Part shown: in pieces, positions 9,845-62,322 of the stretch
Layout of the letters: each line of letters opens with the position of its first letter
Numbering within the stretch: position 1 is the first letter of the stretch
DNA from: Bacillota bacterium
Lineage (GTDB): Bacteria > Bacillota > Dethiobacteria > DTU022
Assembly (NCBI GenBank): GCA_033549065.1
Contig: JAWSUE010000001.1
Location: forward strand, 179,136 to 243,135
Length of the DNA: 64,000 bases
Reading direction: 5' to 3'
Translations under genes and position numbers: made by a program
Notes under the pieces: model-generated
What the model was told of the DNA's origin: nothing
The model's database searches: none
Seen by the model: the letters and a program-made list of their open reading frames with translations, nothing else

Positions 9845-10150
9845 CATCAATATAAATAATAAATAAAAAATCCGCCCTTTAAGGGACGGATTAAAATCCG
9901 CGGTACCACCCAAATTGATGATTATCCACTCAATAAGTACGGGCATAAGATTTAATTCTGCCGATACCCTCTCCCTGTAACGGGGAAGAACCGTTAACAC
10001 CTACTTTGCCTTATGAATATCCGGTTTTCAGTGCAAAACTTCGAAGGGAACTTCAACAAGCAGTTTCCCGGCCGGATTTTCAGCCATTGATCCAACCTCT
10101 CTGGAGAGTTGCTATGCTTGCCTACTTTCCTTCTGCATTGTTTTTTAAAT
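9845..10150 (-). promoter_or_regulatory. T-box riboswitch leader (probably Phe-responsive) upstream of aroF-pheA
   Basis: Minus-strand T-box sequence AAUUUGGGUGGUACCGCGG (9898-9916) is followed by a terminator hairpin AAUCCGUCCC-UUAAA-GGGCGGAUUUUUU (9865-9896). The upstream stem-I-like region contains GAAGUUCCCUUCGAAG with UUC codons. Confidence 0.7.
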
Positions 10151-33660: not shown

Positions 33661-33930
33661 AGGCCGTGCACCTGCCTTTGACCGGCAACCCCAGGCGCCT
33701 TCCAGGCAGTTAGCTCCAACCCGGCGCTCCCGTGGCACCCGCAAATACTCACTTACCGCTGCTTCCTTCCGGACCTGACGGGGTTCATAAGCTTGCGCCG
33801 CACGGGACCAGGCCTTCGACACCACTTACCCGGTGCTGACCCTAAAGCTGCACGACCGGGGGCAGGAATTCAACCCCGCTATAGCGGATTGCGGGTTCAG
33901 GGCACCGCTACCTCCCCGTCTAGCACGGCC
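33661..33930 (-). ncRNA. ffs: Signal recognition particle RNA (long Bacillus-type scRNA)
   Basis: Domain IV motif GUCAGGUCCGGAAGGAAGCAGC. Terminal helix GGCCGUGC / GCACGGCC. Overall collinear with B. subtilis scRNA. Conserved position upstream of dnaX. Confidence 0.8.
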
Positions 33931-40735: not shown

Positions 40736-41389
40736 TTAACGTTCAAAACGCAGATCATTAATAACATTTCTGAAATCTGCGTCAGTCACCCTTTCCAGGT
40801 TGATCTCAATCCCATCCCATGTGTCGATGATGTTGACAAATTCATTGTCGATAAAAATCACCTGGGCAATTCGTTCCCATTCTGCCAGTCCGCGATGATA
40901 GAGCTCAAGGTAAGTATTTGCTTCACCTGAAACCAGTCGATACTGGGTTCTGAACCAATAACCTTCAGATGGAACAGCAAGATTCACCATCTCGTTTGGC
41001 AGAAACTGAAAATATACTTCATTATCTGCACTCGTCCCCTTCCAGGAACCGACAAGATCGCCGGTAACAGTGCCTCCTGCAGAAGGTACATCACCGCTGC
41101 GGAATAAGAACCAGTAACCGGCACCGGCGCCGACAACAAGGAGCAGGACAAGGATTATTACAGGTATTACCCAACGGTTACCCTTCTTTACCGAAGCTTT
41201 TTTGTAGGTTTCACTCTGACGGGGAGCTAAAACCTTTTTCTCCCGATCACTTTTAACCGATCCTGTTTGTTCAGCCTTAACGGCAGCGGGTGCCGGGGCA
41301 TCTTCCAGCATTGATTCACAATATCTACATTTTATAGCCCTCGAAGGGATATCTTCTAAGCAAAACGGACAGGTTTTAAAATCAGCCAT
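40736..41389 (-). CDS. Membrane protein with N-terminal zinc-ribbon and extracytoplasmic domain
   Basis: 'CPFC...CRYC' zinc ribbon, one TM segment 'VIPVIILVLLLVVGAGAGYWFLF', ~120-aa C-terminal domain. Confidence 0.45.
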   Translation of the reverse strand: MADFKTCPFCLEDIPSRAIKCRYCESMLEDAPAPAAVKAEQTGSVKSDREKKVLAPRQSETYKKASVKKGNRWVIPVIILVLLLVVGAGAGYWFLFRSGDVPSAGGTVTGDLVGSWKGTSADNEVYFQFLPNEMVNLAVPSEGYWFRTQYRLVSGEANTYLELYHRGLAEWERIAQVIFIDNEFVNIIDTWDGIEINLERVTDADFRNVINDLRFER

Positions 41390-53333: not shown

Positions 53334-54290
53334 ATGAAAAACATCTCTATTTGCCTGTTACTGATATTATCAATATTTCTTTTCACAACATCGTGTACTG
53401 AAACAGACAGTCAACTTCCCGAAGTTTCCCCGGAAGAAGTTGCGGATAATGATGAAGCAGTAGACTTTGACAACAGCCAGGTAGAAGAACCGGAATTTAC
53501 ATTCCCCGAACCGAGTGCAGTAGAAAACAACTATCATTTAGAAGAGGCTTTCCCTGGTCTATTTTTTACACGACCGCTGGATCTACAGAATGCAGGTGAT
53601 GGAAGCGGTCGCTTATTCGTGGTAGAACAGGCAGGGATGATCTATGTTGTTGAAGGCCCGGCTTACTCCGAAAAAGAGGTTTTTCTGGATATCCGTGACC
53701 TGGTTGATGACAGTGGCAATGAAATGGGTCTTCTTGGTCTTGCTTTTCACCCCCAATATATAGAAAATGGTTATTTTTATATAAACTATACCGACAGATC
53801 AGGTACGGTAATAGCCAGATTTAATGCTTCCGGTAATATCGCAGAACCAGCCAGTAGAAAAACTATTATGAGTTTCAGCCAACCATACCGAAACCACAAC
53901 GGAGGTCAGTTATCCTTCGGCCCGGATGGTTATCTCTATATTTCTACCGGTGATGGAGGAAGTGGGGGAGATCCCCAGGGACATGGCCAAAACCTTCAGA
54001 CCATTCATGGCAATATCCTGCGGATTGATGTTAACAGTGAAAGATCTGAAGATAATTATACAATACCTCCCGACAATCCTTTTACAAACAGTGATGAGGG
54101 TGCCCTCGAAGAAATATACGCTTACGGATTGCGTAATCCATGGCGCTTCAGCTTTGATCCGATGACCGGGAATCTCTGGGCAGCAGATGTTGGCCAGAAT
54201 AGAGTTGAAGAGATAAACATAATTGATGAAGACCTAAAGATCTATTTGACAGCATTTGACGGAAAAGTTTACAGGCTAAAAAAGAATTAG
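53334..54290 (+). CDS. PQQ-dependent sugar (glucose/sorbosone) dehydrogenase-like lipoprotein, apparently C-terminally truncated
   Basis: Lipobox 'TTSC'. Beta-propeller motifs 'LGLAFHP' and 'NHNGGQLSFGPDGYLYISTGDGG'. Only ~250 aa of propeller where about 330+ are expected. Ends 27 nt before tRNA-Arg. Confidence 0.55.
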   Translation: MKNISICLLLILSIFLFTTSCTETDSQLPEVSPEEVADNDEAVDFDNSQVEEPEFTFPEPSAVENNYHLEEAFPGLFFTRPLDLQNAGDGSGRLFVVEQAGMIYVVEGPAYSEKEVFLDIRDLVDDSGNEMGLLGLAFHPQYIENGYFYINYTDRSGTVIARFNASGNIAEPASRKTIMSFSQPYRNHNGGQLSFGPDGYLYISTGDGGSGGDPQGHGQNLQTIHGNILRIDVNSERSEDNYTIPPDNPFTNSDEGALEEIYAYGLRNPWRFSFDPMTGNLWAADVGQNRVEEINIIDEDLKIYLTAFDGKVYRLKKN

Positions 54291-54317: not shown

Positions 54318-54395
54318 TGGTGCGCCCGGCAGGATTTGAACCTGCGACCTGCTGATTCGAAGTCAGTCACTCTATCCGGGCTGAGCTACGGGCGC
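54318..54395 (-). tRNA. tRNA-Arg (anticodon UCG)
   Basis: Minus strand GCGCCCGUAGCUCAGCCCGGAUAGAGU...CUUCGAA...GGUUCAAAUCCUGCCGGGCGCACCA. Confidence 0.75.
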
Positions 54396-57098: not shown

Positions 57099-57197
57099 AC
57101 ACCTCTTATAATAATCTTAACAATTTATGCAGAATCAAGCCAGTAGGCGCTGTTGTTGGATAGAGTTTCGAATGTTCACTTTCAGAAACCATTATTT

Positions 57198-57279
57198 TGG
57201 TGCGCCCGACAGTTAATACCTCTGACCTATCGATTTGTAATCCTGAATGAGAACATGGCTAATAGACTTCTGCGCACTC
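57198..57279 (-). repeat. tRNA-Arg-like degenerate remnant (copy A of a tRNA-derived repeat)
   Basis: It ends with the identical 11-nt tRNA-Arg 3' terminus CGGGCGCACCA and shares AGGUC-GAGGU with the intact tRNA-Arg, but it does not fold as a tRNA. Its 5' ~38 nt recur at 60071-60109. Confidence 0.45.
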
Positions 57280-57401
57280 TTTTTATTAATATTTAGTTAA
57301 TTATTCTAGCCCATGTCTGCTTGCTTTACAAGCAGGGTAGAAATAAAAGTAGCTTATTAAAATGTAAATATCTGTAGCGGTGTGATCCTTTTCATGAGGA
57401 G

Positions 57402-59951
57402 GTGCTTCCATTGGTTGAAAAGAAAGCTTTCCAGGTACCTATTGATGTAAAGAGTGATCAAATAAATAGAAAAAAAATCCCACGCAGGAAAAAACACCGT
57501 GTGATAATGATAATTATTCTGATCTTTTTCCTATCATTTTTGATCACCGGTGGCGCTGCTGCAACAGTGGTAGTCAGCTATATTAATGAGGCTCCGTACA
57601 TCGATCACTCACTATTAGAAACCCCGGAAACTTCATATCTTTACGATATCAATGGCGAAGAGATTACCCGGTTACATGGCGACCAGAACCGTATTACGGT
57701 TAAACTGGAAGAAGTACCTGAACATGTTCTACAGGCATTTATCGCTATTGAAGATGAGCGCTTCTATCAACATTTCGGTTTTGACATCATCGGTAGCATC
57801 AGGGCTGCCTACATCAATCTAAAAGCCGGATCCATTGTGCAAGGTGCAAGTACCATATCTCAACAGCTGGCTCAAAATGCTTTTTTAACTACTGAAACCA
57901 GCTATAAACGTAAAATTCAGGAGATCTGGCTGGCTATTCAGCTAGAGAAAGTTTACAGTAAAGAAGAGATCATGGAGCTTTACATAAACCGGATCTACTT
58001 TGGCAACACAGCCTATGGGATCGAGGCTGCCGCTCAAACTTATTTCGGAAAGAGTGTTATGGAATTAAACATAGCGGAGTCGGCAATGCTGGCCGGCGCA
58101 GTGCGATCGCCAAATTACTACAACCCTATCGATAACAAAGCTGCCGCTGAAGAACGTATGCGTAGTGTTTTGGTCAATATGGTCAGGCTTGGTTTTATTT
58201 CAGAATCTCTGTATGGACGAATAATTGAACAAGGACTCAATTATACAGAGTCAGATAGCGCCAATTACCCATATCCCTACTTTGTCGATTATGTTGTTCA
58301 TAACGAGTTGATAAAGATTCTGACTACAATACCTTCAATCGGAACCCGTGAGGAAGCTTACAAGACTATATATAATGGCGGCTTACATGTCTATACCACC
58401 CTGGATCCACTAATTCAAAGCCATGTGGAAAACGTTTTGGAGCAGACCGTTCTTTACCCTACAACAATCTATGTCGATATTGCAAAGGCAAGGGAAGCAA
58501 TATCCAAACTGCTTCCGGACGAGGAACTGTCAAGCAGCCAGTTAGAGGAACTTATAAATGAAGAAAACGGCATACCACAGCCCCAGTCAGCAGTAGTCGT
58601 TGCTGATCCAGGTACCGGTCAAATAAAAGCTCTGGGCGGGGGGCGTGAATACAGCAAGGGTACAAACGAGGTACTACGCTTTATCAGCCTACGCCAACCC
58701 GGTTCTGCAATTAAGCCGATTATCACTTACAGCCCTGCCTTCGAGGAGGGAATCCTGGCCGGAGCCAGCTCAACTCTGGATGATTCTCCTTATATCGGTC
58801 CACGGGGGGACTGGTTTCCGGAAAATTTTGACTACCAGTTCCGTGGAATGATCCCGGTCAGAAAGGCTTTGATCTATTCATATAATTTACCGGCGGTTCG
58901 CGCTTTCGAAGCGCTTGGCACCCGAACCGGCGCAGCATACGCAGAAAAGATGGGTATTTCAACCATAACCCCGGAAGAGATAGACAACTTAAGCCTGACC
59001 CTTGGAGGCTTTCATATAGGAGTCAGCACTGTTGCTATGGCCCAGGCTTACGGAGTCCTGGCTAACCAGGGGTTAAAAGTTGACCTGCACACTGTTGAAA
59101 AAATTATAGACCGGCAGGGAAATATAATATATGAATTTAAACCTGAGCCGGAAAAGATTTTAAGCCCTCAAACTGCATTCCTGATCAACGACATCCTGCA
59201 GGAATTCGTGACCGATTATCTCGGCCGGGAGCTGCGAATCGATCGACAGATTGCCGCCAAAACCGGCACTACTAATGATTGGAGAGATGTTTATCTTGTT
59301 GCTTATACACCCAACCTGGTTACCTCTTTCTGGATGGGTTATGATGAGCCGAGGATAGGCAGAATTGAACAGGGTTGGCGATACTCAACCAGATTTTTAC
59401 GTGAAGTTTTTTTGGAAGTTTTTAAAACACTGGAAATAAAGGAATTCGAACAACCGGACGGGATCGTCAAAATGTCGGTCTGCAATAAATCAGGGTTGAA
59501 GCCAAATAGTGACTGCAATGCAGCCGGAACCATAATCCGCGATTACTTCATAGCCAACCTGGCGCCCACAGCAACCTGCAATATGCATGAAAACGGTTAT
59601 TATAATCGTCCACCATATATTACAACAGATCAACGTTGGTCAGGTAAAGGCGGACCTGGAAGAGGGCCCAAAGATGCCATAGAAATGCTTTCCGAGGAAG
59701 ATGCCATGGCGAACACTGGCTTTTTTGTCCAACAAACTACAGGGCTTGCCCAAGTGCCTGATGTACGAGGGGAAAATCTACAAATTGCTGAGACACAGAT
59801 CAATCGGGCAAACCTAAGAGTGGGTAATATTGAAAAGCAATATAGCACTGAAGTTTCTGCTAACCGTGTGATCCGGCAATCGCCCAAACCCGGAACAATA
59901 GTGAACAGGGATAGTAAAGTTCACCTGATCGTTTCTAAAGGCCCTCAGTAA
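57402..59951 (+). CDS. Class A penicillin-binding protein (PBP1A: transglycosylase + transpeptidase + C-terminal PASTA)
   Basis: GT51 motifs 'EDERFYQH' and 'GASTISQQLA'. TP 'SAIKP' and 'KTGTT'. The start could instead be the TTG at 57411, 10 nt after the GAGGAGG RBS. Confidence 0.9.
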   Translation: MLPLVEKKAFQVPIDVKSDQINRKKIPRRKKHRVIMIIILIFFLSFLITGGAAATVVVSYINEAPYIDHSLLETPETSYLYDINGEEITRLHGDQNRITVKLEEVPEHVLQAFIAIEDERFYQHFGFDIIGSIRAAYINLKAGSIVQGASTISQQLAQNAFLTTETSYKRKIQEIWLAIQLEKVYSKEEIMELYINRIYFGNTAYGIEAAAQTYFGKSVMELNIAESAMLAGAVRSPNYYNPIDNKAAAEERMRSVLVNMVRLGFISESLYGRIIEQGLNYTESDSANYPYPYFVDYVVHNELIKILTTIPSIGTREEAYKTIYNGGLHVYTTLDPLIQSHVENVLEQTVLYPTTIYVDIAKAREAISKLLPDEELSSSQLEELINEENGIPQPQSAVVVADPGTGQIKALGGGREYSKGTNEVLRFISLRQPGSAIKPIITYSPAFEEGILAGASSTLDDSPYIGPRGDWFPENFDYQFRGMIPVRKALIYSYNLPAVRAFEALGTRTGAAYAEKMGISTITPEEIDNLSLTLGGFHIGVSTVAMAQAYGVLANQGLKVDLHTVEKIIDRQGNIIYEFKPEPEKILSPQTAFLINDILQEFVTDYLGRELRIDRQIAAKTGTTNDWRDVYLVAYTPNLVTSFWMGYDEPRIGRIEQGWRYSTRFLREVFLEVFKTLEIKEFEQPDGIVKMSVCNKSGLKPNSDCNAAGTIIRDYFIANLAPTATCNMHENGYYNRPPYITTDQRWSGKGGPGRGPKDAIEMLSEEDAMANTGFFVQQTTGLAQVPDVRGENLQIAETQINRANLRVGNIEKQYSTEVSANRVIRQSPKPGTIVNRDSKVHLIVSKGPQ

Positions 59952-60070
59952 CTGACATACTATATATTACCACAAAATAATAGCCTTAGCTTTAACAACA
60001 TCGCCATTCAGACATAAATTATGTAGTAACGCATGATCACTCAAACATTTAAAAATCTTTCTTACTACTA

Positions 60071-60109
60071 CCTAATGACGGGAACTGTGCTTATAGACTT
60101 CTGCGCAGC
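60071..60109 (-). repeat. Copy B of the tRNA-derived repeat (5' portion only)
   Basis: About 30/38 identical to 57242-57279, including the core TAGACTTCTGCGCA. Same orientation. Confidence 0.45.
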
Positions 60110-60263
60110 TAACAGAATATCATTTAAAAAGAAGATTATGTATTCAATAAGTGAAATATCCGTGATACCTCGCTGCTGTGGTTAGTAATCAGCCCTGGAT
60201 AAGGGTTGATCCGATCACTATCAAAAACGACTGCTGATGAGTTAAATAGTATTAATAAAAGGA

Positions 60264-60638
60264 GTGTTATCTATGTCAATCAAGGGTTATTTTGAAAATC
60301 TTAGATATGAACGGGAAAAACAACAAAGAAAAGAAAGCGCAATTAAGATTCTGTCCGGGTTGGCAATTGGAGCTCTGATCGGCGGAGTTGTAGGTGTCCT
60401 CTATGCACCAAAGGCCGGCAAAGAGACAAGGCATGAAATTGCCGAAAAGGTCAAAGAAACTGCCGCTGCCACCAGGGAGAAAGTAAAAGAGACAGTTAAG
60501 GAAGTAAAAGAAAAAGTAGATGACCTGAAAGACAAAAGGGTAGCCGTTGTTGATAAAACAACCGATTCCAAAAACGCAGTTAAGGAATCGGGAGAAGTAT
60601 TAACAGCTGCCAAGAGAGATGGCAAGAATAAGATTTAA
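60264..60638 (+). CDS. YtxH-like membrane-anchored protein
   Basis: TM 'GLAIGALIGGVVGVLYAPKAGKETR' followed by a Lys/Glu-rich helix. Confidence 0.6.
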   Translation: MLSMSIKGYFENLRYEREKQQRKESAIKILSGLAIGALIGGVVGVLYAPKAGKETRHEIAEKVKETAAATREKVKETVKEVKEKVDDLKDKRVAVVDKTTDSKNAVKESGEVLTAAKRDGKNKI

Positions 60639-60667
60639 TAATCATCTAGATAAATATATACAGGTAG

Positions 60668-61132
60668 GTGGATGAGAAAATGAATGTCAATTTAACTTTA
60701 TATGACCTAGGCCTACTCATATTATTTGTGTTGGTGGTGGTGGCGGTGATTTATTTTATTATCATCGCCAGAAAGTTTAATGACCTGATCGGAAAAGTGC
60801 ATAAGACTTTAGAAACAAATGAAGTTAATATCAATAAAACGCTTGCTATATTGCCCGAAATGCTTGAAAAAACTGATGACATCGCATCCAATATGCAGTT
60901 AGGCGCCCGGGAGTTTGGAACCTCAGCTCCAACTATTTTACATAATTTCAGCGCTATGTCTGACTCGTTAAAAGATAGCGCTAATCTGGTCGTTAGCTCG
61001 GTGGATCTGATTGGGACAGGAATCAGTGAAACGGTCTACAACGTAAAAAATAGGTCAGGTGATGTAGTCAGCTACATCAAGACCATCATGGATGCTTTGC
61101 ACTATCTGGTTAACTATTTAACGACCAAATAA
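60668..61132 (+). CDS. DUF948-like membrane-anchored coiled-coil protein
   Basis: N-terminal TM plus a helical domain. Pairs with ytxH as in Bacillus ytxG/ytxH; family assignment is from memory. Confidence 0.45.
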   Translation: MDEKMNVNLTLYDLGLLILFVLVVVAVIYFIIIARKFNDLIGKVHKTLETNEVNINKTLAILPEMLEKTDDIASNMQLGAREFGTSAPTILHNFSAMSDSLKDSANLVVSSVDLIGTGISETVYNVKNRSGDVVSYIKTIMDALHYLVNYLTTK

Positions 61133-61765
61133 ACTGAATTACCTGTAGAGAAGAGGCCTGTCACTATCCGTCATAACGTCATAAAAGGATGAGATATGCA
61201 TGGATACATTGGAGAAAGACTATGAGGCGGGGTTTTAGAAAAATGTAATCCCCCCTGCCTATCGCTATATCAGCCAACTCACGGGCACTATCCGGATAAT
61301 AAACGCAACCCGATCAACTACCAGAACCTAACGAAAGTGCTGAAGGCGATACTGCCGCGGAATTTTACAAGAAACGAGGCCCAGCGCTACTTTGCCCCAT
61401 TTTTTACCCTGGCTGAAAACCGCGATTATTGAAACCACACCATCTACGGTCTGGCAATGCTCGGCTTAAGGGATTTCTCCCGAGGCTACAGGCTTCAAAA
61501 AACGGTTGCCGAGATGGCTATCGTGGCTGATAGTTTCTACATCAAACCGCTGAGACGTATCCTTCAGATAGTTGACCGATACTATATCCTCGGCCTTAAT
61601 CGCCATGGGATAAGGCTCTTTGCCTGACAAGCAAAAAGAAGCTTCAGACAAACTTCAAGTCATAAGTTTTGGCAATGTACAACAAGGAATTTAAATTCCA
61701 CACACAATACGCACATTAAAAGGGTCTTAGGATTTATTGTTAACCCTACGACCCTTATTTTATCG

Positions 61766-61806
61766 TGGTGCGCCCGGCAGGATTTGAACCTGCGATCTCC
61801 TGATTT
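61766..61806 (-). repeat. Orphan 3' fragment (~40 nt) of a tRNA-Arg gene
   Basis: Identical over 30 nt to the 3' end of tRNA-Arg at 54318-54347 (UCGCAGGUUCAAAUCCUGCCGGGCGCACCA), then diverges. No 5' half is present. Confidence 0.6.
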
Positions 61807-61893
61807 TGTTATTAAATATTTAACGCATAATTAAATCTTAGCGATACCTCAGAGACTCTCTGATTCAGTTAGCTAATGTTGATATCGCTCAGC

Positions 61894-62322
61894 CTAATAT
61901 GAGTATATCTTTTTACCGCTTACTATAGGTATGTTATTATTCTTAAGCGTTTTAAGGGCATCGGCAATCTTTTCCACACGTATCATGATAATTGCATTGT
62001 GGGCCGGCTTATCAATAAAAGAGTAAAGATACTCAATATTAATACCAGCATCGTTTAAGCATGCTAAAATACCTGCCAGCCCTCCCGGTTTGTCCGGTAC
62101 CTCGACTGCAATCACTTCGGTTACAGTGGCCATAATCCCATATTCTTTCAATGTACTTAAAGCCTTCTCAGGCTGGTTCACTATTAACCTCAAAATGCCA
62201 AAGTCAGATGTATCTGCAATTGATAACCCACGTATGTTTATTTTTGCCTCTTCAAGTACCTTTGAAACTTTAACCAGTCGACCTGATTTATTTTCTAAAA
62301 AGATAGATATCTGCTTAATCAT
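61894..62322 (-). CDS. Tandem ACT-domain protein
   Basis: Two ACT-like repeats 'ISIFLENKSGRL' and 'IAVEVPDKPGGL'. Partner of the phenylacetate-CoA ligase family gene. Confidence 0.6.
   Translation of the reverse strand: MIKQISIFLENKSGRLVKVSKVLEEAKINIRGLSIADTSDFGILRLIVNQPEKALSTLKEYGIMATVTEVIAVEVPDKPGGLAGILACLNDAGINIEYLYSFIDKPAHNAIIMIRVEKIADALKTLKNNNIPIVSGKKIYSY

Follow-up and report, generated by a model that had tools for sequence, protein, structure and literature searches.

The stretch of DNA analysed here (64,000 nt, referred to as the window) comes from an uncultured soda-lake-type Firmicute (Syntrophomonadaceae/Dethiobacteria-like) and contains three tRNA genes according to ARAGORN and Rfam, tRNA-Arg(TCG) among them (Table 1). 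Two pieces of the 3' part of this tRNA gene, fragment 1 and fragment 2, are found on the same strand as the intact gene, and in the reading direction of that strand the order is fragment 1, fragment 2 and the intact tRNA, both 3' fragments lying upstream. The genes between the copies encode an FGE-sulfatase, a polysaccharide deacetylase, a methyltransferase, a class A penicillin-binding protein (PBP1A), YtxH and DUF948 proteins, and, as a pseudogene, a baeRF-type protein. Another tRNA-like hit, at 40746-40840, lies within an ORF and was judged to be a chance match.

Table 1. Positions of the features discussed in the text (position 1 is the first letter of the window).
Feature	Positions	Strand	Length	Description
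T-box leader	9879-10147	minus		Upstream of DAHP synthase and prephenate dehydratase genes; ordinary Firmicute feature
Large SRP RNA	33664-33928	minus		Adjoins tRNA-Ser(GGA); ordinary Firmicute feature
GSDH	53334-54290	plus	318 aa	Glucose/sorbosone dehydrogenase gene beside the intact tRNA-Arg gene
Intact tRNA-Arg(TCG)	54318-54395	minus		Source-like copy; own, different terminator hairpin downstream
Variable block	57107-61855		4,749 nt	Present in the window, missing from contig L103
Fragment 2	57198-57235	minus		Degraded second tRNA-Arg 3' copy, AATCGATAGGTCAGAGGTATTAACTGTCGGGCGCACCA
Promoter-like motif, copy 1	57251-57276	plus		GAAC-N3-GCT-N-ATAGACTTCTGCGCA
PBP1A	57402-59951	plus		Class A penicillin-binding protein (transglycosylase, transpeptidase and PASTA); largest gene of the variable block
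Promoter-like motif, copy 2	60082-60107	plus		GAAC-N3-GCT-N-ATAGACTTCTGCGCA
YtxH	60264-60638	plus		Intact; upstream in the stress cluster
DUF948/YoxC-like	60668-61132	plus		Intact; upstream in the stress cluster
Intergenic stretch	61133-61893			Between the convergent DUF948 (ends at 61132) and ACT-domain (ends at 61894) genes
baeRF-type pseudogene	61200-61622	plus		Codons 1-141 of a 378-aa baeRF_family3-type (bacterial aeRF1-like) gene
Unassigned block	61623-61855		233 nt	From the end of baeRF homology to junction J1; holds fragment 1 and the hairpin
Hairpin	61720-61756			AAGGGTCGTAGGG...CCTAAGACCCTT, flanked on either side by T-rich sequence; 9 nt past the CCA of fragment 1
Fragment 1	61766-61805	minus		Orphan tRNA-Arg 3' part, tRNA positions 37-76 (3' side of the anticodon loop to CCA)
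Upstream match	61839-61824	minus	16 nt	AGATTTAAT-TATGCG, resembling positions -13..+3 of the intact tRNA-Arg gene (14/16)
Palindrome	61847-61859	minus	13 nt	CAGAGAGTCTCTG, perfect, across J1

Fragment 1 reads AATCAGGAGATCGCAGGTTCAAATCCTGCCGGGCGCACCA on the minus strand from 61805 to 61766, and 38 of its 40 nt are identical to the resident tRNA-Arg(TCG), with 30 of 30 at the 3' end (61766-61795); within the window the match has an E-value of 2e-12 (blastn). The first-pass annotation had reported such a tRNA-Arg 3' piece without a 5' half, about 7.4 kb from the intact gene, and both observations hold, the distance from start to start being 7,448 nt and the orientation common to both. No tRNA is called at this site by ARAGORN, and the score against the Rfam tRNA model (RF00005) is 18-19.7 bits, below the gathering score of 29, so that there is no complete cloverleaf. 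When the 5' half of the tRNA was aligned to the adjacent 61806-61900, the result was no better than that of 9-21% of random windows. A tRNA 5'-half remnant upstream of fragment 1, including the CTGAATCAG palindrome of the empty site described below, was considered and rejected, its score being within the empirical background, and anticodon-stem pairing by fragment 1, taken from an Infernal truncated alignment, was likewise not above the empirical background.

Upstream of fragment 1, at a distance of 21 nt, lies the 16-nt stretch AGATTTAAT-TATGCG, the likeness of which to the start region of the intact tRNA gene is borderline (p = 0.012 against all windows, 0.068 against AT-rich windows). The Infernal glocal alignment of the fragment 1 region starts at the GCG of this stretch (61826). 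If real, the match would mean that a complete tRNA gene formerly stood at the site and has since lost positions 4-36; the same pattern would equally be produced by integration followed by deletion. On the other side of fragment 1, the hairpin at 61720-61756 is strong and terminator-like and separates the convergent ACT operon and fragment 1 from the pseudogene. It escaped a simple terminator scan because its loop is longer than 8 nt, and the predicted RNA fold of 61700-61900 has a free energy of -55.9 kcal/mol (z = -3.8 relative to shuffles). The unassigned block that holds both elements has no match at any retrieved locus except via the 30-mer of the tRNA, and none in viral contigs. Neither the hairpin nor the 25 nt upstream of fragment 1 has an exact match in viral contigs, and in searches of phage and plasmid DNA the matches were limited to the tRNA-derived 30-35 nt.

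The remainder of the intergenic stretch contains a dead gene. The longest ORFs in 61140-61760 are of 56 and 61 aa, in agreement with the first-pass annotation, which had taken this part for a decayed gene translating in shifting frames into protein-like stretches. The gene is indeed decayed: a search with its conceptual translation found 22 proteins of 378-386 aa at 51-68% identity (best E = 1e-53), all of which bear precomputed baeRF Pfam domains, and the pseudogene aligns to residues 10-141 of the intact 378-aa proteins (64-68% identity) in one frame with one stop. As to the shifting frames, the peptides that had been quoted lie in a single frame, separated by one TGA (61430-61432) in place of the TGG codon of a conserved tryptophan, and the sole frameshift is a 1-nt deletion near 61229-61236 (GGGG-TTTT), because of which the start, an ATG at 61200 (MDTLEKDYEAGF), is in another frame than the rest. 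The remnant of an integrase, recombinase or transposase for which a search of this stretch had been proposed is replaced by the N-terminus of a baeRF_family3-type protein in its usual stress-cluster context.

From within the DUF948 gene onwards, 962 nt of DNA align at 78.8% identity to the closest intact locus, on a soda-lake contig (L150), and the similarity ends exactly at 61622. No trace of the C-terminal 237 codons was found across the 64-kb window; an insertion that had split the gene was therefore rejected, since the rest of the gene had been sought there. Translations of the pseudogene region have no Pfam or PHROGs hits. In an intact homologue (P0001), PF18845 (baeRF_family3) covers residues 127-307 (E = 2.7e-45), so the stub of the window gives no Pfam hit because homology stops at residue 141, with nearly all of the domain beyond. 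The window gene is accordingly assigned as a baeRF_family3 pseudogene by its N-terminal homology alone (E = 1e-53).

In soda-lake contigs, an intact baeRF gene directly follows YtxH (L084-L088 and L151) or stands after DUF948 and before CsbD (L150), and the nearest DUF948 relatives without baeRF show the order YtxH-DUF948-CsbD. The order of YtxH, DUF948 and the stub in the window thus represents a truncated stress cluster, not mobile-element machinery in ruins. The GC3 of the pseudogene is 0.565, the only high-GC3 part of the variable block; that of the intact L150 gene is 0.57, which makes the high value a property of the gene itself. Genes of baeRF_family3 recur in such YtxH/DUF948/CsbD general-stress clusters (L084-L088, L150, L151, L152 and the window at 60264-61622). 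In the window, PBP1A and YtxH are each preceded, ~125-160 nt before the start codon, by a copy of a conserved promoter-like motif, GAAC-N3-GCT-N-ATAGACTTCTGCGCA; the two copies share 15 nt exactly, the window contains no other, and none arose in 100 shuffles. Similar sequence precedes genes for YtxH, CsbD and dodecin in several soda-lake contigs (L084-L088, L151 and L152), pointing to a common stress regulon, possibly of ECF type.

The baeRF-1 clade, comprising bacterial aeRF1-like proteins, was defined by Burroughs & Aravind 2019 (PMC6514570), who described lateral transfer of these proteins and proposed a function in ribosome rescue or translational shutdown under stress. The window copy differs from this clade in being a dead N-terminal stub from which nearly the whole Pfam domain is missing. 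The neighbours differ as well: here they are YtxH, DUF948 and CsbD, whereas the published account stresses a ribosome hibernation factor, and its main text contains no occurrence of YtxH or CsbD (PMC6514570). The location of baeRF_family3 genes in YtxH/DUF948/CsbD clusters agrees with the proposal that bacterial aeRF1-like proteins serve to shut down translation in response to stress, and these clusters with their shared motif offer a defined putative regulon that is open to testing, the more reusable by-product of the present analysis.

Fragment 2, overlooked in the first-pass annotation, lies ~4.5 kb from fragment 1 and is the more decayed of the two. It is identical to the 3' part of tRNA-Arg at ~27 of 38 positions with a 2-nt gap, its T-arm is disrupted, with much of it gone, its local alignment score is barely over the background of the window, and it gives neither a hit with the tRNA model nor an ARAGORN call. 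The window has exactly three copies of its terminal 11-mer, CGGGCGCACCA, one each in the tRNA gene, fragment 1 and fragment 2 and all on the minus strand, whereas 100 shuffles gave none; the same three sites were independently recovered as one family (D2) by repeat finding on the window. Chance origin is thereby excluded for fragment 2, as it is for fragment 1 by its E-value. Both fragments have a common 5' boundary (A37, 'AATC', just 3' of the anticodon) and both reach the CCA. The downstream flanks of the three copies are unrelated to each other, and thus the present tRNA locus has not been segmentally duplicated. The upstream flanks are AT-rich with out-of-register matches, the AGATTTAAT-TATGCG stretch being the one borderline exception.

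The two fragments lie inside a segment that varies between strains. The first-pass annotation had read the locus as the scar of a rearrangement and had called for a comparison with related strains for an empty site, and such a site exists: a metagenome contig with 97% identical DNA (L103), found via the neighbouring paaK protein and the only strain compared, is collinear with the window from 63927 to 61856 and then continues directly with 57106-55680, so that only 42 nt separate its ACT gene from the SAM-methyltransferase gene that comes next. The missing 57107-61855 contains PBP1A, YtxH, DUF948, the pseudogene, the hairpin and both fragments. The idea that the region might lack protein similarity while the fragment is a conserved feature of all relatives finds no place here: baeRF similarity was detected, and the fragment is absent from L103 and so not universally conserved. 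At the junctions J1 (61855/61856) and J2 (57106/57107), AGAG is the sole common sequence, and the block ends show no terminal inverted repeats and no convincing target duplication. Fragment 1 is 50 nt inside one end and fragment 2 is 91 nt inside the other, and L103 retains no residual att copy or hybrid fragment; since the junctions are outside the repeats and a hybrid is lacking, the strain difference did not arise from recombination between fragments 1 and 2. It came about through an illegitimate event with 4-nt microhomology. A 4-nt overlap is unable to cause mis-assembly, and the alleles of the window and of L103 are therefore probably both real. The empty allele keeps only the left arm of the palindrome that spans J1 in the window. 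Just upstream of this palindrome, both alleles carry CTGAATCAG, which mimics the anticodon-stem arms of tRNA-Arg and is not significant alone.

Foreign composition of the block was rejected, the GC content being 0.425 in the block and 0.427 in the window. PBP1A and the flanking methyltransferase are each 76% identical to proteins of the same sister MAG (JAABTH01), and this mildly favours a native block that was deleted in L103 over one gained in the window. In that MAG, the orthologous methyltransferase gene is directly preceded by a gene for an IS200-like Y1 transposase (L153, 9113-9916), indicating that the same gene boundary has been rearranged in that lineage too; tRNA-Arg is absent from that locus of the sister MAG. 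Species with 82-88% identical paaK have different genes after ACT. A scan of genome contigs with PBP1A gave 80 loci of 51-77% identity, none of them syntenic on either side. The related MAGs (L001-L080) have two to three class A PBP paralogues each, and in none does the surrounding gene order match that of PBP1A in the window, a sign of poor conservation of gene order in this lineage. The GSDH protein beside the intact tRNA-Arg gene is shorter than its ortholog in the sister MAG (420 aa) and aligns to residues 3-302 and 400-420 of it, that is, with an in-frame internal deletion of ~100 aa. With this deletion and the baeRF pseudogene, the neighbourhood is visibly decaying.

Integrase genes were sought throughout. 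Two integrases used as phmmer queries had no match among the six-frame ORFs of the window (all those of 50 aa or more), no integrase is present in the block or in the 7.4-kb interval that reaches to the intact tRNA gene, and 20 further ORFs of the window (290-400 aa) proved to be housekeeping genes without an integrase among them. Among the retrieved relatives, none has tRNA-Arg at either fragment position and none has an element carrying the flanks of the fragments.

The attP site of a tRNA-directed element carries a copy of the 3' part of the tRNA gene, and integration regenerates the tRNA while displacing the old 3' fragment, which extends from the crossover site to the CCA. We lean, though not far, towards regarding fragments 1 and 2 as non-functional relics of such tRNA-Arg-directed recombination by tyrosine integrases, left in a rearranged and decaying patch. 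Tyrosine integrases would have targeted the block of the tRNA-Arg gene from the anticodon loop to the 3' end, leaving the two fragments; the integrase and the remaining element or elements are absent from the window. The YtxH-DUF948-baeRF cluster was cut at baeRF codon 141 and acquired the frameshift and the stop afterwards, and the illegitimate event with the 4-nt microhomology has made the 4.75-kb patch variable between strains. The loss of the baeRF C-terminus and that of the integrase may belong to one deletion history. The pseudogene break at 61622 is 143 nt from fragment 1, and this gap means that the break is not an integrase junction. Fragment 2 is presumably the older, or was the earlier to be freed from selection; a near-intact fragment 1 beside a decayed fragment 2 is expected if fragment 1 was part of a working tRNA more recently.

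An attachment-site remnant had already been proposed for fragment 1 in the first-pass annotation, and the evidence bears on it in both directions. The same 5' boundary and the bracketing of the variable block in direct orientation make an att origin more likely than two truncations unconnected with each other, and the 30-mer is found next to integrase genes in viral contigs, as described below; the position of the block junctions, 50 and 91 nt beyond the fragments, speaks against it. Together with the lack of an integrase in the window, the non-canonical configuration and the weak alignment of fragment 2, these off-fragment junctions keep our preference for the relics of integrase recombination, taken as a whole, only a little above even. 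An integrase origin of the fragments would nonetheless account for their shared extent. Nothing suggests that the fragment has a present function. The locus itself is a patchwork scar from several separate illegitimate breaks (61622/61623, J1 and J2) together with the two tRNA-Arg 3' relics.

The absence of an integrase anywhere in the window agrees with two paralogous tRNA-Arg genes that decayed in place by ordinary deletions without any mobile element, as do the 14/16 match upstream of fragment 1, the start of the glocal alignment at its GCG, and the other local deletions, in baeRF at codon 141 and within GSDH. This course of events is conceivable and rather unlikely, for it requires two independent deletions to end at the same nucleotide, tRNA position 37, and the 5' half to vanish without trace while fragment 1 kept 38 of 40 nt of the 3' part; moreover, the upstream match is borderline in AT-rich sequence, and the retrieved relatives offer no tRNA-Arg at either place. 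A functional RNA, such as a T-arm/acceptor-like module which with the hairpin terminates or processes the paaK-ACT transcript, is very improbable. Fragment 1 shares the strand of the ACT gene and follows its stop codon at a distance of 88 nt, the strong hairpin comes next, and the region folds better than its shuffles; the candidate 61-nt transcript, however, folds no better than shuffles (z = -1.2), no Rfam family reaches threshold, no conservation was seen in any relative examined, and in the 97%-identical strain the whole arrangement is missing, ACT running straight into the next gene.

With att-type direct repeats near both ends of a strain-variable and integrase-less segment, the block could be a cassette that kept its att repeats and lost its recombination genes, and that a tRNA-Arg integrase acting in trans could still excise or move, in keeping with the definition of a CIME (PMC6323972). 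We hold this to be improbable: no att copy remains in the empty allele, the junctions of which, outside the repeats, have AGAG alone in common, much of the T-arm of fragment 2 is lost, and the cargo looks native in GC content and in the common relationship of PBP1A and the methyltransferase to the sister MAG. The window appears to be MAG-derived (P0023 and P0055 are 99-100% identical to NCBI MAG proteins), and 57107-61855 and its junctions in the window rest on one assembly, which raises the question of chimeric joins at short tRNA-derived repeats. Such an artefact is hardly to be expected, since a chimera at a 30-nt repeat would give one flank identical to the tRNA locus and neither flank is, since the similarity ends at position 37, inside the would-be repeat, and since J1, J2 and 61622 have no repeat able to mislead an assembler. 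Histories outside those set out here are given scarcely any weight. Relics of tRNA-Arg-directed integrase recombination thus remain the preferred explanation of the two fragments.

The locus is a fresh instance of a well-known kind of feature, an ordinary genomic scar without a working element, where the trace of tRNA-linked recombination coincides at one spot with an accessory gene cut short and an indel that separates strains. It has little import beyond annotation hygiene, where it advises caution: an orphan tRNA fragment by a gene-free stretch need not adjoin a dead integrase, and the dead gene here is unrelated cargo.

Genomic islands in tRNA genes have been catalogued by Islander, in which a site centred on the anticodon is used by 2083 of 3919 islands, the commonest class (PMC4383910). 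As in these islands, an intact tRNA gene and cognate end fragments reaching the tRNA end are on one replicon in the window, for fragments 1 and 2 alike, and all three copies share the minus orientation. Further likenesses are the 5' boundary of fragment 1 at the anticodon loop, the lack of overlap with a coding domain, and an interval of 7.4 kb, within the range of islands. The configuration, in contrast, is different: the Islander filter requires the 3' fragment downstream of its tRNA gene and rejects one upstream (PMC4383910), and both fragments are upstream of 54318-54395. The first-pass annotation had noted that the arrangement does not fit a single simple integration at the intact tRNA, and an upstream 3' fragment is just what this filter discards; the upstream configuration means that the intact tRNA gene at 54318 is not the simple partner of either fragment. 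An island carries a tyrosine integrase inside, which the interval in the window lacks; two fragments without matching integrases do not form a recognisable tandem array, and the ends of the strain-variable block are not at the fragments.

A CIME is an integrase-less remnant flanked by attL and attR (PMC6323972). The block resembles one in being integrase-less, strain-variable and placed between direct att-type repeats, and in having no integration or transfer genes of its own. Of its direct repeats, fragment 2 matches at only ~27 of 38 positions with a disrupted T-arm, and a cognate integrase would be needed to judge whether either repeat is a usable att site. Excision via att sites is not what L103, the one empty allele at hand, records, for its junction points are 50 and 91 nt away from the repeats, on their outer sides, and it keeps no att copy; no cognate ICE or integrase is known for the block. 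There is a slim chance that the three same-strand copies record a non-canonical kind of tRNA-directed integration, in which 3' fragments pile up upstream (for example, by elements carrying the 5' part of the tRNA or a whole tRNA gene), or mark a cassette without its own integrase, by which a cell-wall synthase and stress genes are passed from strain to strain with the help of a tRNA-Arg integrase acting in trans.

There are viral parallels as well. Use of the 3' part of a tRNA-Arg gene has been reported for Streptococcus phage Sfi21 and Sulfolobus SSV1. In IMG/VR, the 30-mer of fragment 1 belongs in some cases to a complete phage tRNA, and two contigs have it as an orphan fragment by a Phage_integrase gene. 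One of them (L098) has a 49-nt tRNA-like block between a phage lysozyme gene and an integrase gene, and in the other (L100) the fragment lies within the 3' end of the integrase gene. In these attP-like arrangements, a Phage_integrase gene is within ~200 nt of the block or overlaps it, whereas in the window nothing of that kind is left. The 30-nt T-arm/acceptor block itself is identical to that of the window in both contigs, and the block of L098, like fragment 1, starts in the anticodon region.
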